This document shows positions 4,894 to 58,480 of a DNA stretch of 64,000 nt, piece by piece. Under the pieces are notes generated by a model. The model had not been told where the DNA came from. It did not search any database and saw only the letters and a program-made list of their open reading frames with translations. Positions within the stretch are counted from its first letter, which is position 1, and each line of letters opens with the position of its first letter. The position numbers and the translations under genes are program-made. Origin of the DNA: Patescibacteria group bacterium (lineage in GTDB: Bacteria > Patescibacteriota > Minisyncoccia > Minisyncoccales > RBG-13-36-15); contig JACZRI010000002.1 in the NCBI GenBank assembly GCA_022574775.1, forward strand, positions 10,303-74,302, read 5' to 3'.

Positions 4894-5916
4894 TTACAAC
4901 TCAAGCATTATCTGCTCCAAAGCCAATCTTTGATTAATATTGGTTCTATCTATTAAAACTTTTACTCTTTCAATAGTTTGAATAATTTTTCTCAACTGAT
5001 TAAAAGAATAATGGCTGCCGCCTTTGGCGAGCCTCCCCCCCGCTTGAAGCGACGCCTCTGGCAAGAAGTTAGATGACTTTTTTATTTTTTTCAGCAAAAT
5101 ACCACGAAAATACCGCAGCCAGATCTCTAGAGTTTCTTTTATGTCCTTTTTTTTAGAAACTAAATCTTTAACGTACAGGAAGCGAGAAACAAGATCTGTT
5201 TTGCTAAATTGTGTTATCTCCATTATTTCCTGTTCCTGGTCTTTCATTATTTGAGGATGTTTAGCTAAACTAACAGCCATCCCTGGTTTTCCAAAAGAAA
5301 TTAAAGCGATTTCTTGAGCTTTCTTAAGAGAATAACCGTTTTCCTTAAGATAATTTTCAATCGCAGATTTTGAAACGGGAAAAAATTTAATTTGCTGAAC
5401 TCGAGACAAAATAGTCTGGAAAAGAATTTGAGGATAATCAGTAATTAAAATTAAAATAGTTTTCCCTTTTGGCTCCTCAAGAGTCTTTAAAAGACAATTT
5501 TGAGCATCAGGGTTTAAGGTATGGGCATCGTTAATTATTGCTGCTTTAAAAGAAGCTAAGGAAGGACGGAGAGATAATTTCCAAACAAGATCTCTTATTT
5601 GAGAAATCTTAATTTCCGCCCTGCTAATTGAACCTAAATCCTTCTCCGGTTTCTGTGGTTCAACAAAAAAAAAGTCTGGATGAATGCCTTTTTCTAGGTC
5701 CTTACAGAACCGACAATCCTGACAAGGTTTTTTCCCTGCCTGCCCCTCACCGAACTTGTTCTGGCGCTGGGAACAGTAAAGTAATTTAATAAACTCCAGG
5801 GCTATTTTTTTTTTACCTAATTGAGACTGGCCAGAAAATAAATAAGCATGAGAAATTTTTTGCATATCTGCTGATTTTCTCAAAAATTCCCGCTGCTTTT
5901 GATGACCAACAATCAT
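4894..5916 (-). CDS. holB: DNA polymerase III delta-prime subunit
   Basis: 340-aa ORF with a clamp-loader AAA+-like N-terminus (HAYLFSG..GKKKIA), a CQDCRFC Zn module and an SRVQ motif. Confidence 0.85.
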   Translation of the reverse strand: MIVGHQKQREFLRKSADMQKISHAYLFSGQSQLGKKKIALEFIKLLYCSQRQNKFGEGQAGKKPCQDCRFCKDLEKGIHPDFFFVEPQKPEKDLGSISRAEIKISQIRDLVWKLSLRPSLASFKAAIINDAHTLNPDAQNCLLKTLEEPKGKTILILITDYPQILFQTILSRVQQIKFFPVSKSAIENYLKENGYSLKKAQEIALISFGKPGMAVSLAKHPQIMKDQEQEIMEITQFSKTDLVSRFLYVKDLVSKKKDIKETLEIWLRYFRGILLKKIKKSSNFLPEASLQAGGRLAKGGSHYSFNQLRKIIQTIERVKVLIDRTNINQRLALEQIMLEL

Positions 5917-5918
5917 TT

Positions 5919-6926
5919 TTATTTCTTATCAATTATACTCTTCTTATAAATATCCAGGGTTTCAAGTACAACTCCAGTTCCTTTCACAACGCAAAACAAT
6001 GGATCGTCTGCAACAAAACATGGAACACCAGTGGAGTCAGCAATAAGTTCATCAATATTCCTCATTAAAGCTCCTCCCCCAGAAAGAATCATCCCCTTGT
6101 CCATAATATCCGCAGAAAGCTCCGGAGGAGTATCTCTTAAAACATGTTTTATCATCTGAATAATATCTGTTAAAACATCGGAAACTGCTTCACAGACTTC
6201 GTTGGAAGAAATTTTAATTGTTCGTGGCAACCCTAAGATTAAATCCCTACCTCTAATCTCAAAAAATCTTTCCTCTTTTTCCGGAACAGCGGTTCCAATT
6301 CTTATTTTAATTTCCTCAGCAGACTGTTCTCCAACAGCTAAATTATATTTTTTCTTAATGTAGTCTGAAATAGCAAAGTCCATCGCATCTCCTGCCACTC
6401 TGATTGAATTCCAAGTGACTATTCCTCCTAAAGAAATTACTGCTACTTCAGATGTCCCACCTCCGATATCAACAATTAAATGACCAGAGCAGGCATTAAT
6501 AGGAATCCCTGCTCCAATCGCTGCTAAAATTGGTTCTTTGACAACATAGACAGATCTAGCGCCGGCTGCCATTCCAGCTCCGATCACTGCCCTTTTTTCC
6601 GTAGACGTGATGCCCACTGGAACCGCTATCATTAATTCTGGCTTGAAAAAACGAAAAGATCCACCGGTTCTTTCAATAAAATATCTAAGCATAGCTTGAG
6701 CCACTCGGTAATCAGCAATCACACCATCACGTAAAGGCCTGTACACTCTGATGGTATCTGGAGTCCTGCCTACCATTTCTTTAGCTTCTGTACCTACTGC
6801 TAAAATTTTATTCTCCACAACAGAGACTGCTACCACAGAAGGTTCATTCAAAACCACCCCTTTCTTAGGAATAAACACCAGGGAATTACGGGTTCCAAGA
6901 TCAATTCCAATTTTAGAAGAAAACAC
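5919..6926 (-). CDS. mreB: second MreB-family actin-like protein
   Basis: 335-aa ORF with DLGTRNS, DIGGGTSEVAV and LSGGGALMRN motifs. Paralog of 365-1417. Confidence 0.9.
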   Translation of the reverse strand: MFSSKIGIDLGTRNSLVFIPKKGVVLNEPSVVAVSVVENKILAVGTEAKEMVGRTPDTIRVYRPLRDGVIADYRVAQAMLRYFIERTGGSFRFFKPELMIAVPVGITSTEKRAVIGAGMAAGARSVYVVKEPILAAIGAGIPINACSGHLIVDIGGGTSEVAVISLGGIVTWNSIRVAGDAMDFAISDYIKKKYNLAVGEQSAEEIKIRIGTAVPEKEERFFEIRGRDLILGLPRTIKISSNEVCEAVSDVLTDIIQMIKHVLRDTPPELSADIMDKGMILSGGGALMRNIDELIADSTGVPCFVADDPLFCVVKGTGVVLETLDIYKKSIIDKK

Positions 6927-12773: not shown

Positions 12774-12984
12774 AAAAATCGATGCTAATATGCGAATCAA
12801 TACTAATTATACTGATTTAGAATTCATTCGCATTATTCGTATGTATTAGCCCCAGAACCAATCCTCACTTCGTTCGGATGGTACGGGGCAAGCATAATTA
12901 TAGGTTAACTTGTTTGGAGCTTCCTATGCCCGCCCTGTACTTCCCGACTTGTCGGGATAGTACCGGGGTATATTGGTATCGCGT

Positions 12985-13521
12985 TTATCGTGAATAAAAT
13001 TCGAAGATTGCTGGAATTTCAATTGGTAAAGAGACCTCTTCTACTGAAGGCACGCCAACAACTTTTCCTTCTAATTTCTCTTTATCTAACTCTAACCAAG
13101 AGGGCGGCTCATGTTTTTTAAGAATCATTAAAAGATTCTGAAAAATCTTTTTTTGCAATTTTTTAGGAAGAATAGTAATTTTATCGTCTTTCTTTACTTG
13201 ATAAGACGGAATGTTCACTTTTTCTTCATTCACTAAAAAATGTCCGTGATTGACTAGTTGACGCGCCTGGACGCGAGTTTTTGCAAAACCCAACCGGAAA
13301 ACAACATTGTCCAAACGGTTTTCTAATCTTTTAACCAAAAGCGTGGTAGGATCTTCAACCATTCTTCTTTTTCTTAAAACCTCTTTAACATATTTTCTGA
13401 ACTGGGCTTCTCTCAAATTATACAACTTTTTTAGTTTTTGTTTTTCTTTTAATTCTTTACCGTATTCAGATAAAGGAGCAGGTCTTCTTTTCTGTCCTTG
13501 TGAACTAGTGAATCGTGCCAC
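12985..13521 (-). CDS. rpsD: 30S ribosomal protein S4
   Basis: 178-aa GTG-start ORF with an S4 pattern and an S4 RNA-binding domain (RLDNVVFRLGFA.TR.QARQLV.HGH). Confidence 0.95.
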   Translation of the reverse strand: MARFTSSQGQKRRPAPLSEYGKELKEKQKLKKLYNLREAQFRKYVKEVLRKRRMVEDPTTLLVKRLENRLDNVVFRLGFAKTRVQARQLVNHGHFLVNEEKVNIPSYQVKKDDKITILPKKLQKKIFQNLLMILKKHEPPSWLELDKEKLEGKVVGVPSVEEVSLPIEIPAIFEFYSR

Positions 13522-13607
13522 TTATTGAAGTCTGAAGTATGAAGTCTGAAGATCTGAAGAATTTATAAAATTTCCTTCGTTTCTTCGCACTTTTTACTTC
13601 GTACTTT
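13522..13607. repeat. 86-nt word-hairpin spacer (GAAGTCT / CTTCGTA arms), copy 1 (rpsK-rpsD)
   Basis: Fills the spacer exactly from stop to GTG start. 85/86 identical to 14061-14146. Confidence 0.95.
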
Positions 13608-14060
13608 TTACACTCTTCTAACCTTAGGTGGTCGGCATCCGTTATGTGGAATAGGAGTTATGTCTTTAATAACTAAGATATCTAATCCTCTTGCAGCCAA
13701 AGACCTAATTGCTGACTCTCGGCCAGATCCTATACCTTTTACCAAAACCTCAATTCTTTCCACTCCCAATTTTTTGGCTTTCTGGACAATTCCTTCGGCT
13801 ACCTTTGATGCCGCAAAAGGAGTAGCTTTTTTTGTTCCCCTAAAGCCGATGTTGCCAGCTGAACTCCAAGCCAAAACCCTTCCCTGTAGATCGGTCAAAG
13901 TACAGATAGTGTTATTATAGCTTGTAGAAATATAAACTCTGCCTTCTTTAATCTTTTGCGAAGGCTTTATTTTAGCTTCTTTTTTAAGAGTTTGTTCAAT
14001 TTTCTCTCTTTCTTGAAGCAATTCCTCTTCAGTTTTCTCAACAATGCGTTTTTTACCCAC
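13608..14060 (-). CDS. rpsK: 30S ribosomal protein S11
   Basis: 150-aa GTG-start ORF with S11 core (NNTI.TLTD..G..L.W.S.G..GF.G.KK.TPFAA). Confidence 0.95.
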   Translation of the reverse strand: MGKKRIVEKTEEELLQEREKIEQTLKKEAKIKPSQKIKEGRVYISTSYNNTICTLTDLQGRVLAWSSAGNIGFRGTKKATPFAASKVAEGIVQKAKKLGVERIEVLVKGIGSGRESAIRSLAARGLDILVIKDITPIPHNGCRPPKVRRV

Positions 14061-14146
14061 TTATTGAAGCCTGAAGTATGAAGTCTGAAGATCTGAAGAA
14101 TTTATAAAATTTCCTTCGTTTCTTCGCACTTTTTACTTCGTACTTT
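14061..14146. repeat. 86-nt word-hairpin spacer, copy 2 (rpsM-rpsK)
   Basis: 85/86 identical to 13522-13607, and the flanking stop (TAA) and start (GTG) codons also match. Confidence 0.95.
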
Positions 14147-14536
14147 TTAGGTTGGCGCTGGTGGTAGCTTTCTTCCAGAACCTACGGTTTTGCGAACATT
14201 TCCGCGAACAGTTCTGTTGTTCGTTTTAGTTCTTTGTCCTCTTACTGGCAATCCTTTTATATGGCGAATTCCTCTCCAAGAACCAATATCTTTTAATCTT
14301 TTAATATTCACAATCTGTTCTCTGCGTAATTCTCCTTCAATTTTATAATTTTTTTCAATAACCTCTTTAAGTTGATTGACTTCAGCTGGAGTAAGCTGAA
14401 AAGCCCTTTTTGCGCGGTCAATTTTCGCTATAGTCAAAATCTTCCTACTCAAAGGTAAACCTACTCCGTAAATATAGGTTAAGGCAACTTCTATTTGTTT
14501 TTTTTCAGGGATATTAACCCCAGCAATTCTCGGCAC
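14147..14536 (-). CDS. rpsM: 30S ribosomal protein S13
   Basis: 129-aa GTG-start ORF beginning PRIAGVNIP..K....ALTYIYG.G. Confidence 0.95.
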   Translation of the reverse strand: MPRIAGVNIPEKKQIEVALTYIYGVGLPLSRKILTIAKIDRAKRAFQLTPAEVNQLKEVIEKNYKIEGELRREQIVNIKRLKDIGSWRGIRHIKGLPVRGQRTKTNNRTVRGNVRKTVGSGRKLPPAPT

Positions 14537-21499: not shown

Positions 21500-22330
21500 C
21501 TACTTCATTGCTTCAGCTAAGGCTCCAGCAATGGCTGCCAGGGCTTTAGCCCGCAAATAAGGATCGCTGATCTCAGCTGCTGCCTTGCGGGCTTGCTCAA
21601 AGTCTTGAGCTTCCTGAGTAACTCCAGCAATAGCTGCCAGGGCTTTAGCCCGAAAATTAGCTACGCTGATCTCAGCTGCTGCCTTGCGGGCTTGCTCAAA
21701 GTCCTGAGCTTCCTGAGTAACTCCAGCAATGACTGCCAGGGCTTCAGCCCGCCAATAAGGATCGCTGATCTCAGCTGCTGCCTTGCGGGCTTGCTCAAAG
21801 TCCTGAGCTTCCTGAGTAACTCCAGCAATGACTGCCAGGGCTTCAGCCCGAAAATTAGCTACGCTGATCTCAGCTGCTGCCTTGCGGGCTTGCTCAAAGT
21901 CCTGAGCTTCAGCTAAGGCTCCAGCAATGACTGCCAGGGCTTTAGCCCGCAAATAAGGATAGCTGATCTCAGCTGCTGCCTTGCGGGCTTGCTCAAAGTC
22001 CTGAGCTTCAGCTAAGGCTCCAGCAATGACTGCCAGGGCTTCAGCCCGCCAATAAGGATCGCTGATCTCAGCTGCTGCCTTGCGGGCTTGCTCAAAGTCT
22101 TGAGCTTCAGCTAAGGCTCCAGCAATGGCTGCCAGGGCTTCAGCCCGCAAATTAGCTACGCTGATCTCAGCTGCTGCCTTGCGGGTTAAATTCAAGACTT
22201 TATTAAAGATCCGAGGAAAAGCGATTTTCTGAGCATTCTCAATAAGCTCTTGTATCGCCTCTCCTGTGATTTTCCCTTCGGCTATCTGACCGAAAAACTC
22301 GCAGAGTTGCCTTACCGTAACAATTGACAT
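21500..22330 (-). CDS. Ala-rich tandem-repeat protein (7 x 33 aa alpha-solenoid-like), function unknown
   Basis: Start set at ATG 22330, preceded by AAAGGAGGT. A 51-aa unique N-terminus is followed by 7 repeats AAAEIS-xxxx-RA[EK]ALA[AV]IAG[ALAE/VTQE]AQDFEQARK. It has its own promoter-like site and terminator, and is GC-richer than its flanks. Confidence 0.8.
   Translation of the reverse strand: MSIVTVRQLCEFFGQIAEGKITGEAIQELIENAQKIAFPRIFNKVLNLTRKAAAEISVANLRAEALAAIAGALAEAQDFEQARKAAAEISDPYWRAEALAVIAGALAEAQDFEQARKAAAEISYPYLRAKALAVIAGALAEAQDFEQARKAAAEISVANFRAEALAVIAGVTQEAQDFEQARKAAAEISDPYWRAEALAVIAGVTQEAQDFEQARKAAAEISVANFRAKALAAIAGVTQEAQDFEQARKAAAEISDPYLRAKALAAIAGALAEAMK
21503..22180 (-). repeat. 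99-bp tandem repeat array (7 copies, last truncated)
   Basis: Period measured from recurring GCTTGCTCAAAGTC (21591 vs 21690, and onward). Copies differ only in a few discrete blocks. Confidence 0.95.
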
Positions 22331-22422
22331 GGCTGTACCTCCTTTGTACAATTTGACCAAGATTTATTATCCCAATGCACTCCCACCAGCACAATAAGAC
22401 ATTCGAACCCTGGCCTATTTCA

Positions 22423-23917: not shown

Positions 23918-24076
23918 TTCTTTATCCCGTACTATTCTGAATGAAACGAGGAATAGTACGGGGGCAGTTGGCAGTAATAAGTGGTTTCATAAAATATAAT
24001 CCTAATCTACGAATCGATCCGAATGCCACGAATATTCGGAGAATTCGGATATCGTTCGTAGATTGGTATCGCGCAT

Positions 24077-32802: not shown

Positions 32803-32882
32803 TTGAAGTCTGAAGTCTGAAGTCTGAAGACCTGAAGATTTTTATTCTTTGTTTCTTCGTACTTCGTACTTCGTATTTAATT
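32803..32882. repeat. GAAGTCT / CTTCGTA word hairpin (rpsH-rpsN spacer)
   Basis: (GAAGTCT)x3 GAAGACCTGAAG ... (CTTCGTA)x3. Confidence 0.9.
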
Positions 32883-33068
32883 TTACCAGCTACTTTTCTT
32901 AATTCCTGGTATCTCAGCTTTATTTGCCATTTCTCTAAAACATATACGGCATAATCTAAATTTTCTCATGTATCCTCTTTTTCTTCCACATCTAAAGCAC
33001 CTACGGACAATCCGAGTTGAAAATTTTGGTTTTCCAAGCGACTTTAAAATTTGTGATTTCTTCGCCAT
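32883..33068 (-). CDS. rpsN: 30S ribosomal protein S14, Zn-ribbon (type Z)
   Basis: 61-aa ORF with [20 protein letters not shown]. Confidence 0.95.
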
Positions 33069-35602: not shown

Positions 35603-36283
35603 TTAAGAAGAGAACTTCTCTCCTTTATAAATCCATACTTTCACACCTACCACTCCATAACTACAATAGGCTTCCGAACTCGCGTAGTCAATATCTGCCC
35701 TTATGGTCTGACGCGGCAACCTCCCTTTTTTTAACCACGCCTTTCTTGCATACTCTGCTCCCCCCAACCTTCCTGCGATTTCTACCCTTGCGCCCTGAAC
35801 TTGTTTTGAATACATTATCCTTCCCAAAGCCTGTTTTAATACTCTTCTGTAAGGAAACCTTCTTTCTATTTGCTGTGCCATCCACTGACTAACCAATTGC
35901 GCATGTACCCAAGGATCTTTGATCTCCTTGATTTCCAACCTCATCTCTGGCGGCTTATCATTTTTTCTTCTCTTCCTGTCCACTAAAATCTTCTTAGGAC
36001 GAAGCTCCTTCTCTAAATTTCTCTTTAATTCCTCAATTCCTGATCCGCCGCGACCAATAATTAAACCAGGCCTTGCAGAAGTCATAATAATCGTTAATTT
36101 CCCAGGAGAACGTTCAATTTCGATCTTCTCTAAACTCATTTGTTTTAATCTCTCTTTTAGAAATTCTCTAATTCTAAAATCCTCCTCTAAAAATTGAGAG
36201 AAATCTTTTTTGCTTAACCAGCGAGAATTCCAATCAGCTGTTTCTTTTGTTCTAAAAATTTTAGGATGAACTCTATGACTCAT
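35603..36283 (-). CDS. rpsC: 30S ribosomal protein S3
   Basis: 226-aa ORF with KH domain and S3-C pattern (IIGRGGSGIEELK...GRLGGAEYAR). Confidence 0.95.
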   Translation of the reverse strand: MSHRVHPKIFRTKETADWNSRWLSKKDFSQFLEEDFRIREFLKERLKQMSLEKIEIERSPGKLTIIMTSARPGLIIGRGGSGIEELKRNLEKELRPKKILVDRKRRKNDKPPEMRLEIKEIKDPWVHAQLVSQWMAQQIERRFPYRRVLKQALGRIMYSKQVQGARVEIAGRLGGAEYARKAWLKKGRLPRQTIRADIDYASSEAYCSYGVVGVKVWIYKGEKFSS

Positions 36284-36366
36284 GTTGAATTACAAAATAT
36301 GAAGCATGAAGATCAAAGGATTTTTAAATATCTTTCTCTTTTTTTCGTACTTCGTACTTCAGACTA
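36284..36366. repeat. GAAG-word hairpin (rpsC-rplV spacer)
   Basis: ATGAAGCATGAAGATC ... TTCGTACTTCGTACTTCAGAC. Confidence 0.8.
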
Positions 36367-36885
36367 CTAAAATGCTTTTCGTTTAAAAAATCTTTTTGTT
36401 CCTTTTTCTACTTTCGGCTTAAGAAAACGAATTTCCGGTCTTAATTTAGGCTTTTCCGCCCGGCGCTCTTCGCCTTTTTGGAGTCCAACTTCCTTCTTTT
36501 GAATTTTCTCCTCCTTTGCTTTCTTTAACTTCTTAACTATTTTTTGCTTTGTTGCAATCTCATCCAATACTAAAATGATATGAGAGGTCTTTTTCTGAAT
36601 CTCTGAAACCTGACCTCGTGCTCTTGGCATCCATCTTTTTAATTTTGGCCCTTCATCAACTGTTATTTTTGAAATATAAAGATTGCCTTCTTCTATCTGG
36701 GAACTCTGTTTAATATTAGCTATAGCCTGCTTTAAAAGCTTAAGCACTGGAAGAGCTGCTTTCTTGGTAGTAAAATTTAAAAGAGCTTGGGCTTCCCTAA
36801 TAGATTTCCCTCTAATTAAGTCAGATATTAATCTCACTTTCCGAGGGGCAATTCGTAGATATCGAAGTTTAGCAGTTGAAGACAT
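36367..36885 (-). CDS. rplV: 50S ribosomal protein L22 with Lys/Glu-rich C-terminal extension
   Basis: L22 core (A.LRYLRIAPRKVRL..DLIRGK....A...L.F) followed by a charged tail of about 60 aa. Confidence 0.93.
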   Translation of the reverse strand: MSSTAKLRYLRIAPRKVRLISDLIRGKSIREAQALLNFTTKKAALPVLKLLKQAIANIKQSSQIEEGNLYISKITVDEGPKLKRWMPRARGQVSEIQKKTSHIILVLDEIATKQKIVKKLKKAKEEKIQKKEVGLQKGEERRAEKPKLRPEIRFLKPKVEKGTKRFFKRKAF

Positions 36886-39281: not shown

Positions 39282-39487
39282 GTTTTGTAGAAGCGGGTTT
39301 ACGCGGATCTAAAGGAAGTCAGACTCCCCTCTAAAGACTTTCTTGAAGCAAGGGTAAGCTCCTCAAAGAGCATCTCGGAGCCCCAGACAGCATGGTCCCG
39401 CCCAGGGCGGGTGTCGGGGTGAGAGTTGAACAGCAATTTCTCGCTGGGAAATTGACTGTGTCTCTTTGATGGGGCTTACCCGAGCGC
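39282..39487. repeat. GC-rich structured element filling the rplC-rplD spacer
   Basis: 206-nt spacer with hairpins CCCGCC/GGCGGG, GCTCC/GGAGC and CAATTTC-TCGCTGG-GAAATTG. The last is homologous to 45317-45341. Confidence 0.8.
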
Positions 39488-42029: not shown

Positions 42030-42242
42030 AAAAATATAATCCTAATCTACTGATTTATCCGAATGCTACAAATTAATTATTAGGATAATTCGGATGTAAT
42101 TCGTTGATTGGAATTACTTTAAGTTATATTATTATTCTACTCAACTAAAAAAAATAGTCAACCTTTTGATAGACTCAAGGTTAACATTGAATCTGGGCTT
42201 TGACTGAACTCAGTTAAAGCCTCGAAACGTCAAGTAACTTAA

Positions 42243-42341: not shown

Positions 42342-42420
42342 CTATCTCCTTTTCCCTTCTATAATCTCTTGTGCGATATTCTGAGGGACCTCCTCATATT
42401 TGTCGAATTCCATTGTAAAG
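42342..42420 (-). pseudogene. orphan duplicate of the fusA 3' end (last ~26 codons plus stop)
   Basis: 42358-42420 is identical to 42577-42639. It continues GAA GGG AAA AGG AGA TAG, which also encodes EGKRR-stop. No upstream reading frame is attached. Confidence 0.85.
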
Positions 42421-42576
42421 TCGCTCGCTCAGCTCGCTCTTTAGACACCTCTCGGTTTCTAACGTTTCCGCCTCAGCGGCGGAAGCCTGTTTTCCTACAC
42501 GGGAAAACACCCAGTTTTCCCGACCCCTTTCTGCTTTACGATGGAATTATTCTGAAAAAATCAACGCCTCTTGCCC
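42421..42576. repeat. GC-rich structured element inserted behind the fusA stop
   Basis: Hairpins GGGAAAAC/GTTTTCCC and TTCCGCC/GGCGGAA. Shares the ACACGG...CCCGACCCCTTTCTG and GGTTTCT(A/T)ACGT blocks with 45395-45542. Confidence 0.8.
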
Positions 42577-44666
42577 TCTATAATCTCTTGTGCGATATTC
42601 TGAGGGACCTCCTCATATTTGTCGAATTCCATTGTAAAGGTTCCTCTGCCTTCTGTCATTGATCTTAAAGATGTTGCATAGCCAAACATTTGAGCTAAAG
42701 GAACTTTTGCATCAATTACTTTAAGATTCAATCTGTCTTTTGTTTCCTCTATCTTTCCTCTTCTCGTTGCCAAATCCCCAATAGTATCTCCAAAAAATTC
42801 AGAAGGAATGGTCACTTCCAGACGCATTATCGGTTCAAGCAAAACGGGCTTTGCTCTTTTAGAGGCTGTTTGCAAAGCCATGGATGCTGCTATCTTAAAA
42901 GCAATCTCCGAAGAATCAACGTCGTGGTAAGAACCATCATATAAAATTGCCTCAATGTCAACCATAGGGTAACCCGCAACAACACCTCTTTCCATAGCCT
43001 CTATCACCCCTTTTTTCACGGCAGGAATGAACTCTTGAGGGATAGTTCCTCCCTTAATTTCATTAGTAAACTCAAACCCGTCTCCTCTTTCCTTAGGTTT
43101 CAAACGCAAGAACACATGACCATACTGACCCCTCCCCCCTGTCTGTTTGATGTATTTTCCTTCAGCAAAAGATTCTCCTTTGATTGTTTCTTTATAGGCA
43201 ACTTGCGGCCTTCCAACTGCAACTGAAACCTTAAACTCCCTGCGCATTCTATCATTGATTATCTCTAAATGCAGCTCTCCCATTCCAGAAATAATAGTTT
43301 CTCCAGTCTCCAAATCACTTTTAACTTTAAAAGTTGGATCCTCTTCAGCTAATTTTTTTAATGCCATGCCCATCTTCTCTTGGTCTGCTCTCGTTTTTGG
43401 CTCAATGCGAATTGAAATAACTGGTTCCGGGAATGAGATTTTTTCCAAAACAATCGGAGAATTCAAATCGCAAAGAGTATGACCAGTAATGGTTTTTTTC
43501 AGCCCAAGGGTCGCAGCAATATCTCCAGCAAAAAGCTCTTCTACTTCTTCACGTTCTGCAGCATGCATTCTTAAAATCCTCCCAATTCTTTCCTTCTCAC
43601 CAGTGGTTGGATTTAATAAATAAGATCCTTTTTGCAAAAAGCCTGAATAAACACGGAAATAATTCAAAGTTCCAACATAAGGGTCAGAAGCTGTTTTGAA
43701 AACTAAAGCTGAAAAAGGCTCTGAATCTACGGCCTTCCTCTCAATTTCCTGACCAGTTTTCGGATCAGTTCCTTTCACTGGAGGCAAATCAATTGGGCTT
43801 GGCAGAAAATCCACGACTCCATCCAAAAGAAGTTGAACTCCTTTATTTTTCAACGCTGATCCACAAAATACCGGAATGATCTTATAGTCAACGGTGGCAG
43901 ATCTCAACACATCCCTTAATTCATCAACTGAAATTTCTTTTTGAGCTAAGTATTTTTCCAAAAGCTTTTCGTCTTCAGCTGCGATTTTTTCCACTAATTT
44001 CTCTCGCCATTCTTCTGCCTGTTCTTTTAAATTTTTAGGTATCTCTTCTTCAACGATATTCTGACCGAAATCGCCATCAAATTTTATTGCTTTTTGCGTT
44101 AAAAGATCAATCACTCCTTCAAAATTTTCTTCAGCTCCAATCGGTATTTGAACAGCCACTGCATTAGGAGATAATTTTTCCAAAATTGATTGCAGGCTCT
44201 TTTCAAAAGAAGCTCCCATTCTATCAAGTTTATTAATAAAACAAATTCTCGGCACCTCAAACTTATCTGCTTGATGCCAAACAGTTTCTGACTGGGGTTC
44301 CACTCCCGCAACTCCGTCAAAAATTACTACTGCCCCGTCTAAAACCCGCAAGGATCTCTGAACTTCAGCGGTAAAATCAATGTGGCCAGGAGTATCAATA
44401 ATGTTAATCCTATGCTCATTTGCTTTTTTTCTTTCCAAATCCCGAGGGGTCCAAAAACAAGTGGTGGCTGCCGCCGTAATGGTAATTCCCCTTTCTCTTT
44501 CCTGTTCCATCCAATCCATAATAGCTGTGCCCTCATGAACCTCTCCAATTTTATGAGAAATCCCGGTATAAAAAAGCACCCGTTCCGTAACGGTTGTTTT
44601 TCCAGCGTCTATGTGAGCAATGATGCCAATATTACGAGTCTTTTCAACAGGATATTGCCTTGGCAT
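42561..44666 (-). CDS. fusA: elongation factor G
   Basis: 701-aa ORF with AHIDAGKTT and DTPGH motifs and EF-G domains II-V pattern. Confidence 0.98.
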
Positions 44667-44782: not shown

Positions 44783-45118
44783 GTGGTTACTAAAACAAGG
44801 CTAGATCCGGCAAGAGCTAAGAGATACATTCTTGCTGGCCAGTCCATGCACAATATGATCATCGAGGGGAACCTGGATCTCTCTGGTGAAATCTTCGAAA
44901 AAGATATATACCTCTTTGACGTAACCATCAAAGGAGATCTGGATCTCAGAGATGCAATCATCCTGGGGAGTTTGCAACTCCAACGTGCGACCATCAAGGG
45001 AGATATGAACCTCGCCACCAAGTCTGGACCAACGAAGATCATCGTGAGTCCTGCAATGGCTGAACAGGTCCGCCAGCTGGCACCTCCCCACGTCCATATT
45101 GAAGTTCAAGCGGAATAG
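44783..45118 (+). CDS. cassette A: 111-aa hypothetical protein with short beta-solenoid-like repeats
   Basis: GTG start 5 nt after GGAAGGAGG. Repeats [10 protein letters not shown] / [10 protein letters not shown] / [10 protein letters not shown] / [12 protein letters not shown]-richer than neighbours, opposite strand to all flanking genes, with a terminator right after the stop. Confidence 0.6.
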
Positions 45119-45133
45119 CTAACCAAAGTCCCT

Positions 45134-45168
45134 AGCAGGCGGACTCTAAATGCCTGCTTTTTTATTTT
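45134..45168 (+). terminator. intrinsic terminator of cassette A
   Basis: AGCAGGC / GCCTGCT stem followed by TTTTTTATTTT. No T-run in the opposite direction. Confidence 0.8.
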
Positions 45169-45169
45169 C

Positions 45170-45542
45170 AATCTACCACGCCAAATTACGAGTAAACTCT
45201 ACACGAGTCCGGAACTCGTAATAATAAACCCTTAGAGCGAGGCAACTGCTAAAAAGGACATCCGCAGGCTCGCGGCCATGGTATCGCTGAAGGCGACGAG
45301 CGAGTCGAGGACTAAGCAGAATTTCTCGGTGGGAAATTCTGTGGTCCTTTGAAGCACGTTGCCGAGCGTTTTATCAGGCCAAATGGTCGCTTCGCCAGAT
45401 ACCGTACGGTACCTGGCTTCGCCACGCTGACGTGGCTCCGCTTCTAAAACACCTTCGGTTTCTTACGTCACTCTTCGGGCTCCTATTTTTCCAACACGGA
45501 GAGATATTCAATCTCCCCGACCCCTTTCTGTGCCATTTTGCC
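45170..45542. repeat. composite GC-rich structured intergenic element abutting the rpsG stop
   Basis: Several hairpins (e.g. CAGAATTTC/GAAATTCTG at 45317-45341 and CCAGATACC/GGTACCTGG). Modules are shared with 39282-39487 and 42421-42576. Confidence 0.8.
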
Positions 45543-46010
45543 TTACCAGGCAAAATGGGCAAAAGCCCTATTAGCTTCTGCCATTCGGTGGATATTTTCT
45601 TTCTTTCTAACTGCCCAGCCAGTATTGCTTGCCGCATCAATCATTTCCTCGGCTAATTTTGCTCGCATTGGTTTTCCTTTTTTCGCTTTAGCCCCTTGAA
45701 TAATCCAACGCATCGCCAAAGTCAATTTTCTCTCCCCTCTTACTTCTCTCGGCACTTGATAGGTTGCTCCTCCAATTCTTTTTGATTTTACCTCAAGCAA
45801 AGGGGATGCATTCTTAAGGGCTTTATCAAAAATATCCAAGGGTTCCTTTTTTGTTTTTTCTTTAATAATATCTAACGCCTGATAAACGATTCTCCTCGCC
45901 AGTATCTTTTTCCCTTGACGCATCACCTGATTAATAAATTTTGACACAACAATATTATTATAAACAGGATCTGGCGATATTACTCTTTTTGCTATTTTTT
46001 TCCTACCCAT
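45543..46010 (-). CDS. rpsG: 30S ribosomal protein S7
   Basis: 155-aa ORF with S7 pattern (PD..Y.......F.N..M..GKK..A..I.Y.A...I). Confidence 0.96.
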   Translation of the reverse strand: MGRKKIAKRVISPDPVYNNIVVSKFINQVMRQGKKILARRIVYQALDIIKEKTKKEPLDIFDKALKNASPLLEVKSKRIGGATYQVPREVRGERKLTLAMRWIIQGAKAKKGKPMRAKLAEEMIDAASNTGWAVRKKENIHRMAEANRAFAHFAW

Positions 46011-58266: not shown

Positions 58267-58480
58267 AAAAAAAATCCCACTTCGAGTGGAATAAACCTAT
58301 CCAGACTGTCCAGCCTGGACTAAACTTCTCCTTTGCTCGAAGGTAGAGGTTAAAAATATTGTGCCCACTTCGTAAAACTTCAGAAGGCAAGGATGGTATT
58401 CTGACTTTCACAGTTACGGCATAGTCCCGGATTTTCACCGGCGTTCCCCATCCACTGTTAAGGTTCGTTAGTATAGGATA
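58267..58480 (-). promoter_or_regulatory. cobalamin (B12) riboswitch
   Basis: Minus strand GGAUGGGGAACGCCGGUGAAAAUCCGGGACUAUGCCGUAACUGU core and B12-box-like AGUCAGAAUACCAUCC (58386-58406). A hairpin plus U8 abuts the AUG. Confidence 0.85.

Follow-up and report, generated by a model that had tools for sequence, protein, structure and literature searches.

A probable miniature mobile element with its own replacement gene end at the 3′ end of fusA in a Patescibacteria genome

Integrative islands regenerate the tRNA, tmRNA or gene-end target and leave behind a displaced fragment of it, as described in three earlier papers (PMC4383910, PMC1762012, PMC4482086). Here we report on the fusA (EF-G) locus in a stretch of 64,000 nucleotides from a Patescibacteria group bacterium (contig JACZRI010000002.1 of assembly GCA_022574775.1, positions 10,303 to 74,302; the whole stretch is called the window), where the 3′ end of fusA is duplicated around a short structured segment. 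We interpret this segment as part of a miniature non-autonomous mobile element that inserted 79 nt before the end of fusA and carries its own replacement gene end, a reading to which we give a probability of roughly 0.8, and we file the element as a variant of the target-regenerating integrative elements that is miniature, free of protein genes, structured, and equipped with an inverted copy of a piece of its target. Like a tyrosine-integrase island, the element splits a gene near one end, supplies a replacement end and leaves a displaced fragment that marks its far boundary, and its junctions are found in the T-loop of tRNA and tmRNA targets and at the 3′ and 5′ ends of protein-coding genes. 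Unlike such an island, it measures 114–323 nt, has neither an integrase gene, for which the repeat period is too short, nor any other open reading frame (ORF), and its interior is a conserved structured core. Moreover, whereas the islands have one fixed attP specificity, the element occurs at extremely diverse targets, each copy with its own inverted target copy (g), and its two ends, the replacement and the displaced one, share an identical block beyond which they are homeologous.

The window derives from a low-GC genome and contains an operon of the str/S10 type (rpsL, rpsG, fusA, tuf, rpsJ, rplC, rplD and further genes). According to the ORF list, the functional fusA coding sequence lies at 42561..44666 on the minus strand, encodes 701 aa and ends with a TGA at 42561-42563. 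In a protein search its product was 100% identical to the Patescibacteria EF-G P0001, the nearest others being about 80% identical and of Nealsonbacteria type, and an exact-protein look-up of the window EF-G gave 0 contigs on record. A repeat search aligned 42348-42420 with 42567-42639 (73 nt, 96% identity, spacing 219). Within this alignment, an exact block of the fusA 3′ end, which we call D, spans 63 nt (42358-42420 and 42577-42639), and the orphan copy (42342-42420, minus strand) encodes the same 26 C-terminal residues as the functional gene, followed by TAG. Beyond D both termini encode EGKRR-stop; they differ at seven nucleotides (of the kinds G/A, C/G, C/A and T/A) in four sense codons and the stop codon, all differences being silent and all located in the last 16 of 79 nt (P ~1.4e-5 under random placement). 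The EF-G C-terminus is conserved at the protein level, as seen in 120 homologues. Compared with the 3′ ends of 78 other Patescibacteria fusA genes, the 63-nt block is matched at no more than 53/63 positions and at 66% on average, so that the 63/63 identity within the window points to a recent common origin of both copies and not to mere conservation. The exact 63-bp duplication and the synonymous recoding of its terminus, both reported in the initial annotation from the sequence, are thus borne out, and so is the statement that the orphan copy has the codons typical of the host: host codon usage favours the choices of the orphan about 37-fold over those of the functional copy. The third element of that description, 156 nt of GC-rich hairpins between the copies, holds but for a small correction. 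The segment has a G+C content of 51%, as against about 36% for the window, and its hairpins are backed by covariation (see below), but 16 nt of it are recoded codons and stop codon of the functional gene, and the non-coding insert proper measures 140 nt (42421-42560).

Read along the gene, the fusA body is followed by a replacement terminus T′ (63 identical nt, five recoded codons and a stop codon), an 8-nt spacer, the 19-nt g, a 113-nt core, the displaced terminus T and native downstream DNA. T′ (42561..42639, minus strand) entered together with the insert and is made up of D (42577-42639), the recoded GAG GGC AAG AGG CGT (42564-42576, minus strand) and TGA; as the functional end of fusA it reads ...GAGGGCAAGAGGCGTTGATTTTTTCAG. 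The A/T spacer (42553..42560, minus strand; TTTTTTCA on the gene strand) lies between the new stop codon and g, a position that it also holds in other copies. g itself (CTTTACGATGGAATTATTC, 42534..42552, plus strand) repeats the junction's target site in inverted orientation and matches the start of D in 14 of 15 bases. The core occupies 42421..42533 on the minus strand, which across the family is the better RNA folder, and is matched by our covariance model R1 with 76.6 bits (E 1e-17). In plus-strand coordinates it comprises the hairpin P1 at 42441-42462, the variable GC hairpin P2 at 42466-42484 and the hairpin P3 at 42500-42522, and the conserved core end CCCGACCCCT is read on the plus strand at 42519-42528. 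T (42342..42420, minus strand) consists of D (42358-42420), GAA GGG AAA AGG AGA and the TAG at 42342-42344, after which the native downstream sequence AATAATCCAC...TTGAC begins. Since the insert, which amounts to roughly 200 nt and encodes no protein, provides a working end, fusA remains intact.

Which of the two ends is ancestral can be read from the closest EF-G relatives, whose loci (L203-L207) were found by exact-protein look-up; a comparison of fusA 3′ ends and downstream DNA among relatives had been proposed in the initial annotation. The fusA site is empty in L203, L204 and L207. In L205 and L206, which stem from two metagenomes and encode an EF-G that is 82% identical, a member of the same family (R1: 71 bits, E 9e-17) sits at the identical fusA nucleotide (...GGAAC|CTTTACAATGG) with a repeat period of 201. 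Occupied and empty alleles of the same conserved-motif site thus exist among relatives. The native downstream sequence of L203 and L207, AATAATC[CT]ACA...TTGAC, is homologous to the sequence that follows the orphan in the window, that is, these two loci continue the orphan copy, which marks the orphan as the ancestral fusA end; and since orphan and downstream DNA are ancestral, the functional end belongs to the insert. The orphan is therefore shown to be the ancestral end and the functional end to be imported. The two terminus copies of L205 share 92 identical nt, which take in the stop codon and the 13 nt after it, as if the entire terminal fragment had been duplicated only recently. A short microhomology (ATTC, TCCA) marks the point where T′ joins the complement of g in the window and L205/L206 lineages.

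The same core is found at other gene ends. A search of relatives with BLAST and nhmmer, covering 80 related fusA loci, recovered it in three of them: in L016 it lies inside a duplicated 3′ end of the L28 gene (rpmB), the tail of which is again synonymously recoded; in L056 it lies behind a 66-nt duplication of the fusA 5′ end (the first 62 nt of fusA and 4 upstream bases); and in L010 the core is circularly permuted. Long spans of fusA matches in relatives, considered as possible insertions, reflected only tuf G-domain homology. A conserved-block pattern search of metagenomes (groundwater, sediments) gave at least 120 loci, and 0 matches in a viral contig collection. The covariance model R1, built from 83 copies, matched the window only twice (76.6 and 66.9 bits); across related loci totalling about 1 Mb, its sole matches were L016, L056 and part of L010. 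Given few matches in related loci and many loci in metagenomes, the family is widespread but sparse; its cores are about 75–115 nt long. No Rfam family matched the element when the window and its three GC-rich inserts were searched at gathering and E-value thresholds, hits over the element being at chance level, and a literature search for the element returned no description of it. The family is apparently undescribed so far.

For comparison all copies were oriented with the strand carrying CGGTTT...CCCGACCCCT as the top strand. In this orientation, those for which a flanking repeat could be detected share one layout: displaced fragment T, junction J, core, about 5 nt, g, an A/T-rich spacer, T′ and the remainder of the gene. 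Within the core, a variable left part, often starting with GTCGCT, is followed by P1, the optional GC hairpin P2, P3 and the end CCCGACCCCT. An exact direct repeat of at least 14 nt flanks 50 of 124 copies (about 40%), as against 2 of 619 mismatched-flank controls. In these 50 copies the repeat period ranges from 114 to 323 nt (median 183), and the duplication is of variable length (14–94 nt, median 20). Within the 240 nt right of the core, 43 copies have an entire tRNA or tmRNA gene on the opposite strand and one copy has it on the same strand. The inverted target copy g was present in the 50 analysed copies, is 13–20 nt long (median 13.5) and begins about 5 nt past the core; in 33 of the 50 it reaches at least 3 nt, typically 6-8, over J into the gene body, which implies that an intact site served as its template and that it did not arise by fold-back of the displaced flank. 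Whether a 3′ or a 5′ end is targeted, the GTCGCT side is always the one with the short terminal fragment, and the orientation of the element relative to the host gene differs between the two kinds of target. The core ends GTCGCT... and ...CCCGACCCCT are not complementary, the sole inverted repeat being that formed by g and the flanking target. Clustering of the ORFs within 3.5 kb of 124 loci yielded housekeeping genes and no recombinase, transposase or reverse transcriptase, and no candidate for a site-specific nuclease or ribozyme that would cleave the empty allele was encoded in or beside the element. One neighbour cluster containing GIY-YIG sequences includes ORFs that read through tRNA sequence and may be an artefact.

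A few loci depart from this layout. At about 5700-6300 (oriented) of L173 there are two tandem units of core, g, spacer and repeat with a period of 181, the array beginning in the last ~9 nt of a core, and in L190 the core is flanked on either side by the core-end motif (terminal redundancy). A search for further permuted or head-to-tail copies gave only L010, L190 and L173. These three hint at a circular or rolling-circle intermediate, being too few to support one; L167 had been grouped with them among the loci carrying this hint.

The element sits in highly conserved motifs near gene ends. Its targets include many tRNA isoacceptors, tmRNA, fusA, lepA, GAPDH, L11, L28 and a ClpP-like gene, tRNA genes being the commonest, and the target is a different one in nearly every copy, matched each time by a repeat and a g specific to it. 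In tRNA genes J lies in the T-loop, the most conserved part of these genes, and the displaced fragment extends to the 3′ end and sometimes beyond. In protein-coding genes the fragment measures 24-94 nt and represents either the 3′ end (fusA, L28, GAPDH, ClpP-like) or the 5′ end (fusA, lepA, L11). Three copies lie right after the AHID codons of translational GTPases (two in fusA, one in lepA), each equipped with a replacement N-terminus specific to its gene and with a g that matches. In GAPDH, five copies belonging to three core subtypes lie no more than 3 nt apart at WYDNE|WGY, and other junctions are QANPA|PP in L11 and GTF|TMEF in EF-G. Conserved sites are likewise preferred by homing introns and inteins. 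A different kind of insert was seen in the fusA gene of a Jorgensenbacteria locus (L042, 3251-3420), where an orthologue-like 5′ end is duplicated and split at the same AHID junction; the insert between the copies is hairpin-rich and has no core motifs of the family described here. Other element families may thus use the same strategy of gene-end replacement.

The recoded tail seen in the window recurs at other loci. When the two termini were compared in eight protein 3′ cases, 37 synonymous and 13 non-synonymous codon differences were counted (by hand for L016), which has a probability of ~5e-13 if a quarter of random changes are synonymous. The two EF-G N-termini of L111 and the two GAPDH C-termini of L196 differ as orthologues do, and the replacement end of L196 resembles the ends found in L131. 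Mostly synonymous differences indicate that both ends evolved as working gene ends, one of them in another lineage, and the 37 to 13 ratio would fit a spread between lineages with the replacement end travelling along. This agrees with the proposal in the initial annotation that both termini evolved as real fusA ends. Of the two histories offered there, an element that targets gene 3′ ends and brings a replacement end with it is directly supported by the recurrence at other gene ends, by the occupation of the same fusA nucleotide in relatives and by relatives with an empty site. Recombination with a diverged fusA allele was probably also a part of the history, as the synonymous divergence suggests.

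The core has features of a structured RNA. In an alignment of 83 copies in the operon sense, 92.5% of the cells in P1 and P3 are paired, compared with 83.0% in shuffled alignments, and 159 double-compensatory cells contrast with 41, a value of 159 being reached by 0 of 500 shuffles; in slid registers only 33-66% of cells are paired. The 121 distinct cores contain 34 distinct P3 stems. Covariation within the family thus shows the hairpins of the window insert to be real. In 109 of 121 copies, folding energy is lower for the strand that is sense for 3′-targeted genes, and wobble pairs in P3 (10 vs 2) favour the operon-sense strand.

Several described classes of elements resemble the family in part. 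Homing introns, inteins and free-standing homing-endonuclease genes likewise occupy conserved-motif sites, are patchily distributed, show signs of transfer together with their flanks and leave host function intact. Introns and inteins, however, preserve the gene by splicing, whereas the present element does so by replacing the gene end, in only ~100 nt and without an endonuclease. A free-standing homing-endonuclease gene that carries a duplicated gene terminus was reportedly found by Paquin et al. in 1994 in an organelle genome, at Allomyces atp6. Duplicated C-termini are also mentioned for fungal mitochondrial DNA in PMC4019555. An identification as a group I or group II intron was rejected, the Rfam intron models being unmatched and the orientation differing between 3′ and 5′ targets; the tRNA introns of Patescibacteria, which might have argued for group I, are at anticodon-loop position 35/36 and unrelated. 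MITEs (miniature inverted-repeat transposable elements), REP/BIME, Correia and RPE repeats and the IS200/IS605-derived PATEs are, like the element, small, non-coding, multi-copy, structured and dependent on an enzyme acting in trans; they differ from it in that it inserts within essential genes and rescues these by supplying a terminus. A MITE in the strict sense is not supported, as there are no terminal inverted repeats at both ends and the duplication is variable (14-94 nt) instead of short and fixed. In mobile elements that bear guides, such as IS110/IS1111 with their bridge or seek RNAs, TnpB/IscB with omega RNAs and group II introns with exon-binding sites, a structured non-coding segment is likewise joined to a stretch matching the target, a likeness that may suggest recognition by base-pairing. 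These systems differ in having no long target duplications, whereas the present element has no adjacent recombinase or nuclease, and a contiguous g of 13-20 nt that often crosses the junction. Assignment to an IS200/IS605-type PATE or an IS110-type element was rejected given the long duplication and the finding that no TnpA/TnpB or DEDD recombinase is linked within the loci.

A scheme that accommodates these features would start with a de novo insertion that duplicates the whole terminal fragment (compare L205), after which the element would spread between related lineages in a homology-dependent, homing-like manner. An imported copy would keep the distal codons of its donor, and the stretch next to J would be made identical by co-conversion or by a template switch onto recipient DNA, which would account for a tail with synonymous divergence behind a block of full identity. 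g would be templated on the intact target and would guide, or merely record, target recognition, with a catalyst, of the host or unlinked, supplied in trans. Beyond this, core and g might be the active part of a new programmable insertion system, in which a ~100-nt structured RNA or single-stranded DNA with a target-templated guide acts together with an unlinked or host enzyme, or by its own catalysis, to steer insertion to any conserved site close to a gene end, and copies the terminal fragment so that the gene is preserved; this idea we hold only tentatively and consider rather doubtful as yet. Three other mechanisms were rejected. A template in the form of complementary DNA from mature tRNA, stopping at m1A58, is at odds with repeats that pass the tRNA 3′ end into the genomic flank and with genes that have no CCA (L101). 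Targeting by g at the RNA level does not agree with the strand complementary to the target transcript, which differs between 3′ and 5′ targets, nor does duplication by a fixed staggered cut agree with a repeat length that varies from 14 to 94 nt.

Some observations weigh against a mobile element of this kind, or against details of it. Within one species, no occupied and empty alleles were found side by side, no movement was observed, and the patchy distribution among relatives could result from loss, since the element would be cut out precisely if its repeats recombined. No catalyst was identified among the neighbouring ORFs of the 124 loci. Because the metagenome survey relied on a single strict pattern, the conserved blocks that we observe are partly imposed by it, and variants such as L205 are missed. 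A sub-family with a conserved right flank, CTCCGATRTGGGATG, has no flanking repeat and sits in spacers of ribosomal-protein operons in either orientation (L084, L085, L099, L106, L120, L135, L150, L156, L159, L168, L171, L174, L180, L188 and L199), mostly directly upstream of a start codon (S17, S14, L14, S11 and others), and many of its members also share a left arm, GGTCGCGGCACGCG...CTAACACCGCTCC. The insertion signature is thus not universal among members; this sub-family may have been domesticated as RNA elements or may have been inserted differently. The pattern of identical block plus diverged tail could also have arisen through later allelic recombination into the orphan or through gene conversion between the copies. 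Finally, the assignment of the core to the operon-sense strand is only moderately supported; for the window copy, the opposite strand has the better shuffle z-score (-3.4 vs -1.3).

A regenerated target with a displaced fragment is, according to PMC4383910, the signature of integrase-driven islands, and the window locus could in principle be a large island or prophage, inserted by a tyrosine integrase and since decayed, whose attP contained the fusA 3′ end and of which an internal deletion left the attachment-site neighbourhood. Two further papers fit this picture, in one of which the T-loop is a classical attB sublocation within tRNA genes (Ms6, PMC1762012) and in the other a protein-gene end is a known island target (dusA, PMC4482086). 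We nevertheless judge such an origin improbable: it would have to account for 50 independent copies with periods of just 114-323 nt, for neighbourhoods that are all devoid of an integrase, and for a conserved core with covarying helices between the repeats where random deletion debris would be expected; a fixed attP cannot explain differing targets, each with a matching g, and the viral contig collection held no match.

The insert might instead be a native structured RNA of the str operon, such as a terminator, a processing site or a binding site for a ribosomal protein, which is immobile and happens to lie beside a local tandem duplication of the fusA end. The core is conserved, covarying and apparently RNA-like, it would be co-transcribed with fusA and tuf on the better-folding strand, and the CTCCGATRTGGGATG sub-family occupies ribosomal-protein operon spacers without flanking repeats. 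However, the core also lies behind more than 40 tRNA and tmRNA genes and at GAPDH, L11, L28, lepA and ClpP-like genes, with a target-specific duplication and g; it occurs in both orientations between the same pair of genes (L156 vs L168); close relatives have no core at fusA; and a decaying duplicate would not differ just synonymously. Immobility is accordingly quite improbable in our view.

Another concern, raised in the initial annotation itself, was that the fusA ends of two strain haplotypes had been concatenated in the assembly. Over 4,445 + 7,401 nt (11.8 kb), the window is 100% identical to an independent Logan assembly of the same organism (SRR12886643), whose contigs end at 42387 and 42610, that is, 30 nt inside the repeat on each side. 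Such breaks at both repeat edges are expected from a k=31 graph at a true repeat; a mixture of occupied and empty alleles would break likewise, and a de Bruijn graph alone cannot separate a 63-nt repeat from an allele mixture. What weighs against a stutter is that the full three-part architecture with core and g is present in more than 50 other assemblies, from unrelated projects and at other genes, that the same fusA position is occupied in the two further metagenomes of L205 and L206, and that haplotype stutter would not place a conserved structured element of 140 nt between the copies. An assembly stutter is thus very unlikely.

Genomes of the candidate phyla radiation (CPR) are rich in diversity-generating retroelements. 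A template/variable repeat pair of such an element, or a retron-like unit, to which two near-identical repeats at a gene 3′ end with a structured non-coding segment between them might point, is effectively refuted by the substitution pattern, since the differences are silent and not confined to template adenines, the target is an essential and invariant protein end, and none of the loci has a reverse transcriptase gene nearby.

The second member of the family in the window, element B, adjoins rpsG (45426..45542, minus strand; core 45426-45528; R1 66.9 bits, E 3e-15). Its g-like segment, GTGCCATTTTGCC (45530-45542), directly adjoins the stop codon of rpsG (45543-45545) and pairs with the final codons of that gene, and compared with the fusA core there are compensatory changes in a hairpin. 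The left part of the post-rpsG insert, 45230-45425, is a separate GC-rich structured segment, and at about 45174-45193 a sequence (...RNLAW-stop) is a weak candidate for the displaced end of rpsG. A further insert, of 206 nt and also GC-rich, lies between rplC and rplD (39282-39487); it has no flanking duplication and no Rfam match, and probably represents a second family of structured spacer elements. Since it has a 35-nt motif (AATTTCTCGSTGGGAAATT...CTTTGA...CCGAGCG; 83% over 35 nt) in common with 45230-45425, element B looks composite or nested. The spacer between rpsG and fusA also harbours an ORF of 111 aa (44783-45118, plus strand), which is on the strand opposite to the whole operon, contains three internal repeats of 66 nt (22 aa), has no Pfam match and lies beside a terminator-like hairpin (45135-45165). 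In the relative L203 the same spacer contains an opposite-strand ORF of 89 aa, similar to the 111-aa ORF by position and strand alone, and in L204 the spacer is only 7 nt long.

Elsewhere in the window, 58392-58452 (minus strand) matches the AdoCbl-II (cobalamin) riboswitch aptamer of Rfam at gathering level (43.8 bits). A 99-nt unit is repeated about seven times in tandem, with 85-96% identity, at 21523-22207 inside the ORF 21500..22360 and would give protein repeats of ~33 aa. Many intergenic spacers contain long hairpins made of heptamer runs, (CTGAAGT)n ... (ACTTCGT)n, at 2724-2806, 6929, 13518-13610, 14057-14149, 23415, 32803-32887 and 36278-36382, which may be a terminator or repeat family specific to this genome. 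A 43-nt motif (AAAATATAATCCTAATCTAC...ATCCGAATGC) directly upstream of the tuf start codon (42031-42073) recurs at 23991-24033 and 12774-12816 and may be a shared promoter or leader.

If the interpretation as a mobile element is correct, it adds an apparently undescribed family of selfish elements to the CPR, whose genomes are so tiny that each insertion into an essential gene must be harmless. Regeneration of the target and displacement of its end would then apparently need no kilobase-sized integrase island, 100-200 nt of structured DNA or RNA being enough. The elements have practical consequences as well: they break short-read assemblies at essential genes, as in the Logan contigs, they leave orphan gene and tRNA fragments that confuse annotation, and they bring pieces of foreign alleles into phylogenetic markers such as fusA, ribosomal-protein genes and GAPDH. 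The target-derived inverted copy hints at recognition by base-pairing and may be of interest for programmable insertion tools. Should the guide-directed reading hold, it would join introns and inteins as a third means by which selfish elements persist within essential genes. The family makes it testable how small non-coding parasites spread between diverged lineages.

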